Positions 5,751 through 20,356 of a stretch of 39,861 nt of DNA are shown here, piece by piece. A program made the position numbers and the translations under genes. Positions within the stretch are counted from its first letter, which is position 1. Each line of letters opens with the position of its first letter. Source of the DNA: a virus; the IMG/VR virus record IMGVR_UViG_3300048583_000181, positions 1-39,861 of that record. One strand, written 5' to 3'. Below the pieces are notes generated by a model, which worked only from the letters and a program-made list of their open reading frames with translations, did not search any database and had not been told where the DNA came from.

Positions 5751-6034
5751 GATAGTGACTCCCTACATATCGCCCCATTAGTGGCCGGGATTGGCGGGGG
5801 CGATGGCCCCTAGTGTCATGGCCAGCCGATAGTGTCAATATACCCCCGGCAATATATTTTCATATACCCTAGGCCAATCGCCCGCCCGCCCCCCGTGTGA
5901 CCGATGACGGCGACTGGGCATTGGGGGCGGCATGGCATATTGACAACGCGTGACACGCGCACGCGCGCGTGTAGCAAAAACCGTGCCAACCGACGACCGG
6001 CTGACGATTGATTGCCGATTGTTAATGTCGATAT

Positions 6035-6050
6035 CCGGTTGCACTAATCC
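6035..6050. repeat. Third, inverted copy of the GGATTAGTGCAAC core; it overlaps the early promoter -35 box
   Basis: The reverse complement of CCGGTTGCACTAATCC is GGATTAGTGCAACCGG, which matches the core of the 3946 and 4014 repeats. Confidence 0.85.
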
Positions 6051-6067
6051 TAAATGGCCGATAGGAT
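6039..6067 (+). promoter_or_regulatory. Predicted early promoter: TTGCAC-N17-TAGGAT
   Basis: TTGCAC at 6039..6044, spacer exactly 17 nt, TAGGAT at 6062..6067. It lies about 45 nt upstream of the first plus-strand ORF, in the divergent intergenic region. Confidence 0.5.
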
Positions 6068-6114
6068 GGCCAATCGCCGGGGATGATCGCGGCGATAATT
6101 TGGGGACTTAACCG

Positions 6115-6294
6115 ATGAAAATCTATAAGTGGTATTTCGGGGCTTCTGAAGGCATTTGCCGATCAACCGAAGCCGCAATGAAAGAAAAATCAATGCAATA
6201 CGCCCGCTCCTGCCTGGCAAAAGGTATCCCACTTTCGGAAATTAAGGCTTGTTATACCCCCGTGCAAATGCGCCAACCTCCAGTATCGATGTAA
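6115..6294 (+). CDS. Hypothetical early protein (59 aa); its TAA stop abuts hammerhead 1
   Basis: Manual translation: MKIYKWYFGASEGICRSTEAAMKEKSMQYARSCLAKGIPLSEIKACYTPVQMRQPPVSM. GGGGA lies 9 nt upstream. It falls below the 60-aa cutoff of the ORF track. Confidence 0.55.
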   Translation: MKIYKWYFGASEGICRSTEAAMKEKSMQYARSCLAKGIPLSEIKACYTPVQMRQPPVSM

Positions 6295-6346
6295 GGACGA
6301 AACCCGCTTCAGCGGGTCATCCGGTAACGCCGGGTCTGATGAGTCC
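6295..6346 (+). ncRNA. Type II hammerhead self-cleaving ribozyme (HHR1)
   Basis: Stem II is open: GGAC 6295..6298 pairs with GUCC 6343..6346. GAAA core at 6299..6302. Stem III: CCGC/GCGG with loop UUCA, plus the C6303-G6316 and A6302-U6317 pairs. The cleavage triplet is GUC, ending at 6318. Stem I is 6 bp (6319..6324 with 6330..6335) with loop UAACG. CUGAUGA at 6336..6342. A G10.1-C11.1 pair is present. Confidence 0.9.
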
Positions 6347-6692
6347 ATCAGTTACTGCTATTAGGGAGCCGATCACGCCAACCCCGCACAACCAGCGTAA
6401 AACCCCCGGCACACAGGGGGTAAAACTCAACGCCGATGAAGAAGATGCTATTCGCCTAATCTGCCCAGCGGTCTATCGTCAATTTGTCTTATACGACTCA
6501 CCATCAAAAGTCGCCCTGCAGTCAAAAGCGCTCGAAATAACCGAAGCCCGGCTGGTCGAATTGATCGAACGGCACAAGGAAAAACAAGCCCGCCACACGA
6601 CCCAGCTCTACGGCCCCAATCACCCGCAGTCTTGGGAAAACCTCTATTCCCCCGCAATCAAAATGCTGCGGGAAATGGGGATTGCGAAGTAA
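6339..6692 (+). CDS. Hypothetical early protein; start codon uncertain
   Basis: The frame is open from 6249, but the 5' part overlaps HHR1. The first in-frame ATG (6339) is the AUG of the CUGAUGA core. A TAGGGAG word (6362..6368) is followed by in-frame ATC and ACG but no ATG. The TAA stop (6690..6692) abuts HHR2. Confidence 0.55.
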   Translation: MSPSVTAIREPITPTPHNQRKTPGTQGVKLNADEEDAIRLICPAVYRQFVLYDSPSKVALQSKALEITEARLVELIERHKEKQARHTTQLYGPNHPQSWENLYSPAIKMLREMGIAK

Positions 6693-6750
6693 GGACGAAA
6701 CGGGCAGCGGTATTGCCCGTCCAGTGGTATTTTCCACTGCTGATGAGTCC
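6693..6750 (+). ncRNA. Type II hammerhead self-cleaving ribozyme (HHR2)
   Basis: GGAC 6693..6696 pairs with GUCC 6747..6750. GAAAC at 6697..6701. Stem III: GGGCA/UGCCC with loop GCGGUAU. The GUC triplet ends at 6721. Stem I: CAGUGG/CCACUG with loop UAUUUU. CUGAUGA at 6740..6746. Confidence 0.92.
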
Positions 6751-6770
6751 AAACACAGGGAGATAGCACA

Positions 6771-6968
6771 ATGACCACCTTTCGCGCAGTTCTGATAAAG
6801 ACAGAAAACAATACGGGCAAGACAACCGGCGAAGTCGTCACGTCGGTTCTCAAGACCGTCGGGCCATGGCAACAGACTTTGATCGGCGCGATCGAAGCTT
6901 GCAAGGCAACGTGGAAACGGGATTTTCCGCAGACCAACTACCGCGAAGCCCAGGATTTTTTCTGGTAG
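6771..6968 (+). CDS. Hypothetical early protein (65 aa)
   Basis: ORF track entry. GGGAG lies 9 nt upstream of the ATG. The ORF sits between HHR2 and HHR3. Confidence 0.7.
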   Translation: MTTFRAVLIKTENNTGKTTGEVVTSVLKTVGPWQQTLIGAIEACKATWKRDFPQTNYREAQDFFW

Positions 6969-7007
6969 TCCAGCGATGATCTTACCCAAAGCCACCACGT
7001 TCAATAA

Positions 7008-7059
7008 AAGCGAAACCGGCGTCAGCCGGTCGGTCGGTATCGCCGGCCCTGATGAGCTT
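7008..7059 (+). ncRNA. Type II hammerhead self-cleaving ribozyme (HHR3)
   Basis: AAGC 7008..7011 pairs with GCUU 7056..7059. GAAAC at 7012..7016. Stem III: CGGC/GCCG with loop GUCA. The GUC triplet ends at 7031. Stem I is 6 bp (7032..7037 with 7043..7048, including one G-U pair) with loop UAUCG. CUGAUGA at 7049..7055. Confidence 0.88.
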
Positions 7060-7090
7060 AATCGTCGGTTTTCCACCAGGAGTCAATTTA

Positions 7091-7318
7091 ATGGCTAAGA
7101 ATATCGCAAAGTCAAAAGGCAACACCGCCCGTCGCTCGGCGCAACGCAATAAAGGGCTGCCCGGCGGAGTCGTCAATCTTCACGGGAAGAACACCTTGCC
7201 CAGCCTCGAAAAGATGCTGGCCAATTCCACTTCTCTCTCCGACCTCGTTCGCAAACTTCGCCTTGCCCGGCGTTGGAAAGTCTTGCCAAAAGCAGCAACC
7301 GGGCGGGGGATGGAATAA
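7091..7318 (+). CDS. Hypothetical small basic protein (75 aa)
   Basis: I moved the start to the ATG at 7091 (MAKNIAKSKGNTARR), with AGGAG 7 nt upstream. The track start at 7052 is the AUG inside the HHR3 core. Confidence 0.75.
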   Translation: MAKNIAKSKGNTARRSAQRNKGLPGGVVNLHGKNTLPSLEKMLANSTSLSDLVRKLRLARRWKVLPKAATGRGME

Positions 7319-17946: not shown

Positions 17947-19638
17947 ATGATTATGCCAGACGGCCTGCCCACCAGCCGTATCATGATCGTGCAAGAGTGC
18001 CCTGGAGAGCCAGAACACCAAATCGGTCGAGCTCTTCAGGGCCTCAATGGCATTGAATTTAACAAAATGCTTACCGAAGCTGGTATCATGCGGTCGGAGT
18101 GCTTTGCCACTTCTGTCATCCGCACGCGCATCTCAATGAACGATATCAACACCCAAATCTGCCACCGCAAGAAAGACGCCACCGATCGCCACTCCCCCTA
18201 TTTCGACAAGCTCGTAACTCAGGAGTTTCAAGATGGAGCATCCCTCCTCTTCAAAGAAATTGCTCTCGTCAAACCCGACGTTATTATTGCTTTGGGAAAT
18301 GGGGCATTGTTTGCGCTCACTGGAAAATGGGGAATTAAGCAGTGGCGAGGTAGCCAGCTTCCTTTCTCGACTGGAGACGGCGACAGCGCAGTATCGTGCA
18401 CTGTTATTCCCACCTACGACCCCGGCTGGATCAAGCGAATGTGGAGTGAGCGGTCAATCGCAGTGCAAGACCTCCGACGGGCAAAAGGGGTTAGGGACAC
18501 TGGATTTCATCAACCGCTGGATGGCGGACAGAGTAGAAGCCGAAAAGACCCCATTGTTGGGCGGGGATATAATTTCATTCTCCGGCCAAGCGTCGAAACC
18601 GTATTGTCTTGTCTGCAAGCGCTCCAACGAACTGTCGAGCTGTCTCCGACGCGATTGTCAGTGGATATTGAAACCCGCGCAGGGCACACCGCTTGCATTG
18701 GAATAGCTTGGTCGAAATCCGATGCAATCTGTATTCCGCTGATGTGTGTCGAGAGCCCGGCGGGCTATTGGCTGGAAGAAGAAGAAACCGCGATCAGCTT
18801 TGCGCTGTATAAACTCCTCACCCACCCAAATGCCGAAGTTATCGGACAGAATTTCGCCTACGATGCGCAGTATTTCTACCGCCATCTTCACTTCATCCCC
18901 AACCTCAAACGCTGCACGATGATCGCTCAGCATACGATGTTCTCCAACCTTCCTAAAGGTCTAGATTACCTGTCGAGCATGTATTGTGACGAGCACATTT
19001 ACTGGAAAGACGAGTCCAAAAACTGGGATCCAAAAGTCGGGGAAGATCAGCTTTGGGCGTATAACTGCAAAGACTGCGTGATCACTTACGAAGTCGATGA
19101 GAAACAGCAAAAGTCCATCGACGAACTTGGCTTGCGGAAAGTCCACGATTTCCAACAAGCTCTTTGGTGGCCAGTTCTTGAGACCATGAACCGCGGTATT
19201 CGGGTTGAGCAAGCTGGAAAAGCTCGCCTCGCCCAGGAGCTATTTGCTGCCATTCAAGAACGCGAAGCCTGGATTATCCGTGTCATCGGACGCCCACTGA
19301 ACCCAAAATCGCCAAAGCAAATGGCAGATTTTTTCTACCGGGAAATGGCGCAGCGACCAGTTATCAACCGCGCGACGGGCAGCCCAACTTGCAACGATGC
19401 TGCGCTGACAAAGATCGGGGAGCGGGAGCCGCTATTACTCCCTTTGATCAACGTCATATCCGAATTGCGAAGCCTCGGTGTTTTCCTGTCAACCTTTGTC
19501 CAAGCCCCACTCGACATCGACAGCCGGATGCGGTGCTCCTTCAACATCGCCGGGACAGTCACCTACCGCTTTTCGTCATCCAGCAACGCTTTTGACTCCG
19601 GCATGAATTTGCAGAATATCCCGAAGGGAGACGATTGA
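17947..19638 (+). CDS. DNA polymerase A family, part I: UDG-like N-terminal domain, 3'-5' exonuclease, and the N-terminal part of the polymerase
   Basis: UDG family-4-like QECPGEPE. Exo I is VDIETRA, Exo II is GQNFAYDAQY, Exo III is YNCKDCV. The ORF ends ...MNLQNIPKGDD*, immediately before where motif A is expected. Confidence 0.85.
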   Translation: MIMPDGLPTSRIMIVQECPGEPEHQIGRALQGLNGIEFNKMLTEAGIMRSECFATSVIRTRISMNDINTQICHRKKDATDRHSPYFDKLVTQEFQDGASLLFKEIALVKPDVIIALGNGALFALTGKWGIKQWRGSQLPFSTGDGDSAVSCTVIPTYDPGWIKRMWSERSIAVQDLRRAKGVRDTGFHQPLDGGQSRSRKDPIVGRGYNFILRPSVETVLSCLQALQRTVELSPTRLSVDIETRAGHTACIGIAWSKSDAICIPLMCVESPAGYWLEEEETAISFALYKLLTHPNAEVIGQNFAYDAQYFYRHLHFIPNLKRCTMIAQHTMFSNLPKGLDYLSSMYCDEHIYWKDESKNWDPKVGEDQLWAYNCKDCVITYEVDEKQQKSIDELGLRKVHDFQQALWWPVLETMNRGIRVEQAGKARLAQELFAAIQEREAWIIRVIGRPLNPKSPKQMADFFYREMAQRPVINRATGSPTCNDAALTKIGEREPLLLPLINVISELRSLGVFLSTFVQAPLDIDSRMRCSFNIAGTVTYRFSSSSNAFDSGMNLQNIPKGDD

Positions 19639-19639
19639 A

Positions 19640-20356
19640 ATGGATATGCCCAACATTCGCAAGCTATTCATTCCCGACCCCGGCTATTCTTTCTTCGACA
19701 TCGACCTTGACTCCGCCGATCTCCGTATCGTCGTCTGGGAGTCCGATTGCAAAGAAATGAAGGCCATGTTTGCAGAAGGGAAAAAGCCGTATGTCGAAGT
19801 CGCCAAAGAATACTACCGAGACCCCTCCATCGACAAGCATCACCCTTCCTATAAAATCTTTAAATCCCTCTGCCACGGAACTAACTACCTCGGCAAAGCC
19901 CGCGGCATCGCCCCGCGAGTTGGCCTTGTTGTCGCTGATGTCGAGCGTATCCAAAACTGGTATTTTGGTAAGTTCCCAGAAATCAAGCAATGGCAAGACA
20001 ATATCATCTCGTCCATCAATCGGCAAAAGTTTATCACAAACGTATTCGGTTATCGCATCAATGCTTTCGACCGGATTGACGACAATCTATATCGAGCCTT
20101 CGTCGCCTGGGTGCCGCAGTCCACGGTCGCTTGTCTTATCAACCGAGGTTATTACAACATCTATAAAAATCTCCGCGAAGTGCAGATCCTGCTCCAAGTC
20201 CATGACTCTCTGGCTGGGCAGTATGAAACGCATCTCGGAGATTGGGCCACTCGGAGAATTGTTGAAGAATGCTCGGTGCCGCTGCCATATGCCGAACCGC
20301 TGATTATTCCGGTCGGCATTTCCAGTAGTAATCTTAGTTGGGGAGATTGCAGGTGA
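19640..20356 (+). CDS. DNA polymerase A family, part II (motifs A, B and C)
   Basis: Begins MDMPNIRKLFIP... Motif A is FFDIDLDSADLRIV, motif B-like is YKIFKSLCHGTNYLG, and motif C is LLQVHDSL. It starts 1 nt after the part I stop, in a different frame. Confidence 0.85.
   Translation: MDMPNIRKLFIPDPGYSFFDIDLDSADLRIVVWESDCKEMKAMFAEGKKPYVEVAKEYYRDPSIDKHHPSYKIFKSLCHGTNYLGKARGIAPRVGLVVADVERIQNWYFGKFPEIKQWQDNIISSINRQKFITNVFGYRINAFDRIDDNLYRAFVAWVPQSTVACLINRGYYNIYKNLREVQILLQVHDSLAGQYETHLGDWATRRIVEECSVPLPYAEPLIIPVGISSSNLSWGDCR

Follow-up and report, generated by a model that had tools for sequence, protein, structure and literature searches.

A type II hammerhead ribozyme between small genes of an uncultured phage, and a recurrent tail complementary to its catalytic core

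Since 2011, hammerhead ribozymes have been known to occur in clusters around small phage genes, and they cleave both in vitro and in vivo (PMC3088659). Processing of polycistronic mRNA has been suggested as a role for hammerheads (PMC6765202), and reviews still call the biological role of those in bacteria and phages an open question (PMC6155905, PMC6765202). We present here an analysis of one hammerhead, HHR1, located at positions 6295 to 6346 on the plus strand of a 39,861-nucleotide (nt) stretch of viral DNA (IMG/VR record IMGVR_UViG_3300048583_000181), the whole of which is called the window below. The locus raises the question of what the nucleotides directly downstream of such a ribozyme do. 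Those of HHR1 are complementary both to its loop I and to its catalytic box CUGAUGA, and the box itself contains an AUG in frame with the next gene.

The picture reached here is probable as a whole: HHR1 would be a self-cleaving hammerhead, its 3′ cleavage product would refold around the remains of the catalytic core, and the downstream gene would start at position 6375. A broader proposal is put forward more tentatively. About a fifth of short-loop phage type II hammerheads may carry, in cis, an antisense to their own catalytic box, and this may be an undescribed and conserved two-state device (reached in others through GACUYG/UGAGUC or, in a neighboring ribozyme, HHR3, through UCGUCGG), which would either cut and then lock or be held back until conditions favor the active fold. 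If true, such a device offers a testable handle on what phage hammerheads are for, and a conserved element controlling whether the ribozyme is active, or the length of time for which it is, bears on the open question of their role.

Identity of HHR1

HHR1 reads GGAC-GAAAC-CCGC(UUCA)GCGG-GUC / AUCCGG(UAACG)CCGGGU / CUGAUGA-GUCC. The conserved hammerhead core, taken as C3 U4 G5 A6 N7 G8 A9, G12 A13 A14, A15.1-U16.1, and C17 (H) at the cleavage site, is complete (CUGAUGA 6336-6342, GAAA 6299-6302, U6317, and C6318). The helices form a three-way junction in which loops cap stems I and III and stem II is open (Table 1). A covariance model, R1, was built from 21 independent phage hammerheads of HHR1 geometry, with the window excluded, and was run with filters off. 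It aligned all 16 base pairs (bp) of HHR1 and matched exactly three places on both strands of the 39.9 kb, 6292-6349, 6690-6753, and 7005-7062. The first is HHR1 (71.3 bits; E value, 5e-17); the others are two further plus-strand hammerheads, HHR2 (57.1 bits) and HHR3 (63.6 bits), which a motif scan also recovered. A complete core and three helices had been claimed for HHR1 in the initial annotation, and sequence and R1 score confirm both.

Rfam at gathering thresholds gave no hit for the hammerheads in the window. At relaxed thresholds, the type II model RF02276 scored HHR1 at 29.2 bits (E value, 0.0017) and HHR3 at 32.9 bits (E value, 0.00018) and missed HHR2 entirely. That HHR1 stays below the gathering score of 37 counts against its assignment to this type. 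The RF02276 consensus, however, describes RNAs with 2 bp in stem II and roughly 10 nt in loop I, and a gathering score is one model's cutoff, not a biochemical criterion; the low score is explained by this other geometry of the Rfam consensus and indicates no defect in HHR1.

The upstream 59-amino-acid (aa) protein has one homolog, P0005, which is 85% identical and is encoded on locus L123 next to an ortholog of HHR1. This ortholog has the stem I of HHR1 without change, UAAUG in place of UAACG as its loop I, and a stem III altered from CCGC/GCGG to CCC/GGG with the loop UCCG. In the HHR2 ortholog on a second locus, L121, a U-A pair of stem I is C-G instead, a compensatory change. Hammerhead helices have thus been kept through compensatory change in relatives (stem III in L123, stem I in L121), in a comparison of one ortholog per ribozyme in which the single HHR1 ortholog ends 15 nt past stem II. 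On sequence and structure, HHR1 is a genuine type II hammerhead with predicted self-cleavage.

Loop I and the downstream tail

The initial annotation had pointed to three elements that can be read together as one device coupling folding to translation: a pseudoknot between loop I and the 3′ tail, a switch into a CAUCAG hairpin, and a translation start at the core AUG. Its first element rests on UAAC (6325-6328) in loop I, which is exactly complementary, at the coordinates given there, to a GUUA that begins at tail nucleotide 5. In the published type II consensus, loop I forms a pseudoknot with the tail immediately 3′ of stem II (PMC3088659), and many type II hammerheads typically have pairings of this kind (PMC3088659, PMC6155905).

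The match was set against hammerheads collected from IMG/VR, 131 with GGAC/GUCC stems and 170 once hammerheads of the same loci with any other stem II are added. This set was seeded with the GGAC/GUCC pattern, was limited to 120 stretches, and is not phylogenetically independent, and fractions of the class given here and below are approximate. Among the 12 members with a loop I of at least 7 nt, 83% form at least 4 Watson-Crick bp between the loop and the first 8 nt of their own tail (9% for permuted tails), and pairing always begins at tail nucleotide 1. With these long loops as the positive control, the test evidently detects real pseudoknots. Among the 158 members with a loop I of at most 6 nt, which include HHR1, at least 4 bp are found within the first 20 tail nt in 9.5%, versus 10.6% for permuted tails. 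The subclass whose tails carry CAUCAG has such a pairing in 2 of 50 members (HHR1 of the window and that of L088), where 5 to 9% would be expected, and none of 14 metagenomic hammerheads that share the top of stem I of HHR1 and a UAANG loop has a tail matching its own loop, nor do they covary. The AUUA in the tail of the L123 ortholog matches its UAAU loop and can be read as a C:G to U:A change in favor of a pseudoknot, but it stands at tail positions 9-12 instead of 5-8 and overlaps the Shine-Dalgarno (SD) sequence. Because the complementarity of short loops to their own tails equals that of the permuted control, we conclude that UAAC/GUUA is, in all likelihood, a chance match: the complementarity is real, and the pseudoknot drawn from it finds no backing in these comparisons. 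An extended stem II (UUAC 6352-6355 with GUAA 6291-6294) was also considered and rejected, being neither predicted nor conserved in L123.

Class features include an A before stem II at position -1 (123 of 126), an A after it at position +1 (100 of 126), and a loop I of the form U..G (93 of 126). In HHR1 an A stands on either side of the 4-bp stem II, stem I has 6 bp, and loop I is a 5-nt U..G loop (U6325, A6294), and the ribozyme is assigned to a loop-loop, nonpseudoknot architecture in which the contact itself is putative. In type I and type III hammerheads, the loops of helices I and II have been described as joined by a reverse Hoogsteen pair (PMC6155905). The quantitative test separates this second architecture from the first, and type II hammerheads are accordingly not all of the textbook pseudoknot kind.

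Pseudoknot-type hammerheads with a non-GUCC stem II occur in the same phage contigs (L019, L034, L047, L052, L060, L100, and L102). Their loop I is 7 to 14 nt long. Stem II frequently has a mismatch at the end of its 5′ strand (GACA, GUCA, GCCU), and the tail, rich in G and C, forms 4 to 6 bp with loop I, beginning at the first tail nucleotide. Both architectures can be found within single clusters, for example those of L100 and L060.

A downstream complement of the catalytic core

The second proposal of the initial annotation, a hairpin of CUGAUG with CAUCAG that would compete with the ribozyme, is borne out. In 35 of the 170 phage type II hammerheads, against 0.56 expected from background frequency, CAUCAG begins either within the 5′ strand of stem II or just past it, and AUCAG lies directly 3′ of GUCC in 27 of 126. 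The register follows stem II (GUCC+AUCAG, GACC+AUCAG, GUCA+UCAG, and GGUC+CAUCAG); since the position of CAUCAG adapts in this way, what is conserved is the complement of CUGAUG, not a fixed tail. A scan of all of IMG/VR returned 81 CAUCAG-type stretches, corresponding to 50 nonredundant members, among which 42 stem I, 37 stem III, and 43 downstream tail sequences are distinct. Beyond AUCAG, about 8 to 10 nt of tail are poor in G, and an SD sequence follows. Representative bacterial genomes contained only two CAUCAG-type matches, both in one metagenome-assembled genome of Acidobacteria.

The minimum free energy (MFE) structure computed by RNAfold flips to the alternative fold once 6347-6351 are included. 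By nearest-neighbor energies, which describe secondary structure and ignore tertiary structure, the alternative fold of HHR1 reaches -24.6 kcal/mol and the active fold -23.0 kcal/mol, a difference of 1.6 kcal/mol that also holds for the whole class; the corresponding values for HHR3 are -29.4 and -23.9 kcal/mol, a difference of 5.5 kcal/mol. Shuffling the tails lowers the predicted probability of core-tail pairing in the 3′ product from 0.45 to 0.33 (Wilcoxon P = 7e-7); the individual values are 0.83 for HHR1, 0.99 for HHR3, and 0.22 for HHR2. HHR2 has no anti-core tail. HHR3 attains the same pairing by a different sequence, CUGAUGA 7049-7055 with UCGUCGG 7062-7068, over 7 bp that include 2 G·U pairs. 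Judged by recurrence and calculated stability, the CUGAUG/CAUCAG hairpin is a real and recurrent competitor of the active fold, and the 1.6 kcal/mol by which the alternative is favored makes two folds plausible.

The inverted repeat CTGATG...CATCAG also exists at the DNA level, and the hammerheads coincide with mosaic junctions, so a protein-binding or recombination site in place of an RNA hairpin was considered. We regard it as extremely unlikely: the spacing between the half-sites is 3, 4, or 5 nt and varies with the stem II sequence, the ribozyme in any case dictates one half-site, and HHR3 and one GUCAG variant pair only through G·U wobbles, which are specific to RNA. Wobble-compatible single-substitution variants of AUCAG were few.

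Other partners for AUCAG were examined and set aside. In the AUCA-tail group, 9 of 30 loops have the form UARAUG, an enrichment, but at least 4 bp with CAUCAG are possible in only 4 of 30, and the HHR1 loop offers none. No complementarity between AUCAG and the sequence upstream of GGAC was seen in the hammerheads listed.

Two other tail types were noted. The second type has AG-N3-5-GACUYG after GUCC, which can pair with (U)GAGUC of the core and stem II strand; it occurs in 17 of 126 hammerheads, for example at L003, L017, L041, L061, L071, and L100. The third type runs straight into the SD sequence (AACAGGAG, AAACAGGGAG).

No description of an anti-core element was found in the literature searched, and the supplements of two key hammerhead papers contain no natural CAUCAG-tailed sequences. 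Of the elements at this locus, the anti-core tail of the class is the single one that may be new, and it seems to be undescribed.

Start of the downstream gene

The third element of the initial annotation was the core AUG as the start of the downstream gene. ATG 6339 is indeed the only in-frame ATG between the stop codon TAA 6243 and codon 6663, and the JGI gene call uses it. Homologs point elsewhere. All nine homologs of the protein start 12 codons downstream of 6339, none having the 12-residue extension; six of the homologs, small proteins of 86 to 109 aa, came from a profile search against 1.84 billion representatives, and all of these start at the equivalent of 6375. The homologs on L121 and L122 begin with MKPPVN and MQPPVN, and in the DNA alignment TAGGGAGCCGATCACGCCA of the window corresponds to TAGGGAGCCGATTATGAAA of L122 and TAGGGAGCCAATCATGCAA of L121. 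The orthologous start codon at 6375-6377 is ATG in both homologs whose DNA was read (L121 and L122) and ACG here, and the gene call extends into the ribozyme core because of this ACG.

AUG 6339 has no SD sequence and is paired in both folds. A core AUG in an open frame with the following gene occurs in 36 of 151 phage hammerheads (24%), so that of HHR1 is not above chance; HHR3 has one too, yet its gene clearly starts at an SD sequence and ATG 7091. Taken together, the homologs, the SD sequence, and its spacing argue that the gene starts at 6375 and not at the core AUG. The ACG would be a weak noncanonical start, an inactivating mutation, or an assembly error.

With its pseudoknot equal to the permuted control and lacking the start at tail nucleotide 1 and the loop of at least 7 nt seen in genuine cases, and with its start codon contradicted by every homolog, the device coupling folding to translation is largely refuted by these comparisons, and we consider it very unlikely.

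A separate observation concerns the same protein family. In P0011, a protein of 5180 aa, six separate stretches match profile positions 10-39, the N-terminal part of the downstream protein.

Proposed mechanism and alternatives

We propose the following course of events. The polycistronic transcript would cleave itself between C6318 and A6319. The 5′ product would be the mRNA of the 59-aa gene, ending in the stem III hairpin with a 2′,3′-cyclic phosphate, and the 3′ product would begin with a 5′-OH directly at the stem I hairpin. The products would then part, because only the 4-bp stem II holds them, and the leftover CUGAUGAGUCC would refold with CAUCAG into a second hairpin. This hairpin would make cleavage irreversible, prevent reassociation, and hide the core AUG together with the single-stranded remnant, leaving free the spacer UUACUGCUAU (pyrimidine rich here, A/C rich in most of the class) and the SD sequence AGGGAG. 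The downstream gene would be translated from this conserved SD sequence and the start at 6375. Before cleavage, the same hairpin would compete nearly isoenergetically with the active fold and may limit or delay cleavage. Whether the anti-core element is a lock applied after cleavage or a regulator acting before it seems to us about equally probable.

Several points weigh against parts of this picture. The alternative, inactive fold is the more stable one in both HHR1 and HHR3, and the hairpin could therefore be mainly inhibitory and not a postcleavage lock. The closest HHR1 ortholog, that of L123, has no CAUCAG, and its MFE structure is the active fold; the element is therefore dispensable for this ribozyme lineage. 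As the partner of CAUCAG is the invariant core, no classical covariation test is possible. ACG is a very poor bacterial start codon, so expression of the downstream gene from 6375 is uncertain.

The first of these points would be taken furthest by a reading in which the hairpin is mainly a negative regulator that acts before cleavage and sets the ratio of polycistronic to monocistronic mRNA. Most transcripts would be kept inactive, and either a fraction of them or those under particular conditions would be cut; candidates for such conditions are temperature, Mg2+, and a ribosome that ends translation at UAA 6292-6294 and covers GGAC. Consistent with it, the alternative fold is the MFE structure as soon as the tail is transcribed, with the stability difference found across the class and the larger one of HHR3; the local hairpin needs just 5 nt beyond the ribozyme; and many members have a stop codon directly against stem II (TAA at -3 to -1 in 26 of 126). 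A seventh pair, between the last stem I nucleotide and tail nucleotide 6, is possible in 9 of 50 members (15.2 expected; P of about 0.03) and is never G:C, which hints that the stability of the anti-core hairpin is capped and lends weak support to a tuned stability. Tertiary stabilization of the active fold lies outside the energy model, however, about three quarters of the class has no such tail, and regulation before cleavage does not exclude a lock after it. Nor is a sensor evident: there is no Rfam riboswitch hit, no ligand-binding element is apparent, and 6347-6362 is too short for an aptamer. On this balance, a hairpin that is mainly a negative regulator is an unlikely account. A ligand-controlled ribozyme or riboswitch was rejected on the missing riboswitch hit and on the tails past CAUCAG, which are not conserved (43 distinct ones among the 50 members).

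The L123 ortholog also invites the view that the CAUCAG tail of HHR1 has no function of its own and is a neutral passenger of a recombined ribozyme module. The tail of this nearest ortholog after GUCC, AGAUGAUAAUUAGGG, is unrelated to that of HHR1, and the hammerheads of this phage group sit at mosaic junctions where similarity starts and stops. Near-variants of AUCAG are rare (28 exact copies versus a handful one mismatch off), which could also reflect the spread of one module. This view has little to recommend it against the 60-fold enrichment over background, the diversity of stems I and III around an invariant tail, the register that adapts to stem II, and the different sequence by which HHR3 makes the same pairing, and we give it only a slight probability.

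Comparison with known systems

RiboJ-type synthetic insulators place a hammerhead and a hairpin upstream of a ribosome-binding site, and RiboJ was engineered from a type III satellite ribozyme. The order of elements is the same at HHR1 (hammerhead, hairpin in the 3′ product, unstructured spacer, SD sequence, and start), as are the expected defined 5′ end and a leader independent of upstream sequence. The hairpin of RiboJ does not contain the catalytic core, whereas that of HHR1 would be built from the core itself.

In viroid and satellite hammerheads such as satRPV, as would be the case in HHR1, a competing fold sequesters the core and gives an active and an inactive state (PMC6765202, reference 84 therein). 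Theirs is a large rod or pseudoknot that serves circular RNA replication and ligation; that of HHR1 would be a 6-bp local hairpin in the mRNA leader of a DNA phage. The supplementary oligonucleotide table of PMC3088659 lists antisense oligonucleotides annotated as pairing with CUGAUGA of each Agrobacterium tumefaciens hammerhead. The same target strand is paired there, but by an oligonucleotide added in trans, whereas the HHR1 antisense is encoded in cis, 4 nt downstream. In function, the anti-core tail resembles both viroid alternative folds and insulator hairpins and would differ from both in being a minimal hairpin made from the catalytic box.

The ribozyme itself is more conventional. HHR1 shares with type II hammerheads of RF02276 (Perreault et al. 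2011, PMC3088659) the core (CUGAUGA, GAAA, and GUC followed by cleavage), a bacterial or phage origin, and an intergenic position. It differs in scoring below the gathering threshold, in its 4-bp A-flanked stem II and 5-nt U..G loop, and in having no loop I/tail pseudoknot (at least 4 bp right after stem II, beyond chance). HHR1 thus has the defining sequence and structure of the type and lies outside both the Rfam cutoff and the published pseudoknot consensus. The prophage clusters described in PMC3088659 (the Agrobacterium tumefaciens ardA triple, Azorhizobium caulinodans, and Clostridium scindens) likewise have hammerheads flanking single genes; in the window, three ribozymes flank two small genes of unknown function in a phage operon. 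The window, in contrast, is a contig of about 40 kb from an uncultured phage, its cleavage is predicted, and its closest complete relative, MW202489, has no hammerheads. The order of features matches that published for clustered hammerheads around small, nonconserved phage genes (PMC3088659, PMC6155905), and in this respect HHR1 is one more example of a known picture.

Hammerhead cluster, relatives, and genome context

All three ribozymes lie on the plus strand within 0.8 kb (6295-7059) and flank two small genes (Table 1), as in the clustered hammerheads found between phage genes elsewhere. The cluster stands at the start of a plus-strand block of small open reading frames (ORFs), just 3′ of a 330-bp intergenic region (5782-6114). 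PHROGs and Pfam searches assigned the small flanking ORFs to no families.

Table 1. Positions of HHR1, its parts, and neighboring features in the window
Feature	Position	Strand	Details
ORF, 59 aa	6115-6294	+	TAA stop at 6292-6294 abuts HHR1; homolog P0005 on L123
HHR1 stem II	6295-6298 with 6343-6346	+	GGAC with GUCC, 4 bp, open; from sequence
HHR1 core	6299-6303; 6316-6318; 6336-6342	+	GAAAC (GAAA 6299-6302); GUC; CUGAUGA; from sequence
HHR1 stem III	6302-6307 with 6312-6317	+	6 bp (CCGC 6304-6307, GCGG 6312-6315), loop UUCA 6308-6311; from sequence
Predicted HHR1 self-cleavage site	between 6318 and 6319	+	C6318 (C17) and A6319 (N1.1); from the hammerhead consensus (GUC, then stem I)
HHR1 stem I	6319-6324 with 6330-6335	+	6 bp including one G·U, loop UAACG 6325-6329; from sequence
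CAUCAG anti-core element	6346-6351	+	Predicted to pair with CUGAUG 6336-6341, 6 bp, loop AGUC; pairing excludes stem II and core
GUUA, complement of loop I	6351-6354	+	Judged a chance match
Shine-Dalgarno sequence AGGGAG	6363-6368	+	Block TAGGGAGCC unchanged in L121 and L122, where the ATG also follows at a spacing of 6 nt
Gene, 105 codons plus stop	6375-6692	+	Extent by orthology; between HHR1 and HHR2
HHR2, type II hammerhead	6693-6750	+	Directly after the TAA of the 6375-6692 gene; followed by SD sequence AGGGAGA and ATG 6771
Gene, 65 aa	6771-6968	+	Between HHR2 and HHR3
HHR3	7008-7059	+	Stem II AAGC/GCUU; followed by SD sequence AGGAG 7078-7082 and ATG 7091
Gene, 75 aa	7091-7318	+	After HHR3

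The two close homologs of the downstream protein are those on L121 and L122. In both loci an unrelated 73-aa gene stands in place of the 59-aa gene and HHR1 (window, 6115-6362; L121, 198-419; L122, 2-190). In L121, a single 58-aa gene also replaces the 65-aa gene, HHR3, and the 75-aa gene (window, 6778-7318; L121, 835-1020); similarity stops just past the start codon of the gene after HHR2 and resumes at the gene that begins MKTYWG... (window, 7319). The flanked genes are not conserved between relatives, and from this replacement of cassettes at ribozyme borders it follows that the ribozymes sit at junctions between exchangeable gene cassettes. Searches of INPHARED phages by blastn with the region and with HHR1 returned nothing useful, and a search of IMG/VR found no relatives of the downstream protein.

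The window is a fragment of a phage genome. Its genes include those for a family A DNA polymerase, a ParB/methyltransferase fusion, a PD-(D/E)XK nuclease, an AAA_24 protein, a DUF3987 protein, and a tail fiber with an S74 chaperone domain. By DNA polymerase, the closest complete relative is MW202489, a 40-kb uncultured phage with 56% identity; since it has no hammerhead, it is of no help for hammerhead conservation. The polymerase of the window is split into ORFs 17947-19638 and 19640-20356, which lie in different frames and encode 563 and 238 aa, while that of MW202489 is a single 779-aa gene. The split could be a frameshift, a sequencing error, or genuine.

A simple promoter scan of the intergenic region 5782-6114 called no sigma-70-like promoter. 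The region is about 78 to 80% identical in L121 (3-200) and L123 (126-315), even though the gene that follows it differs, and it is probably the promoter or regulatory region of the hammerhead operon.

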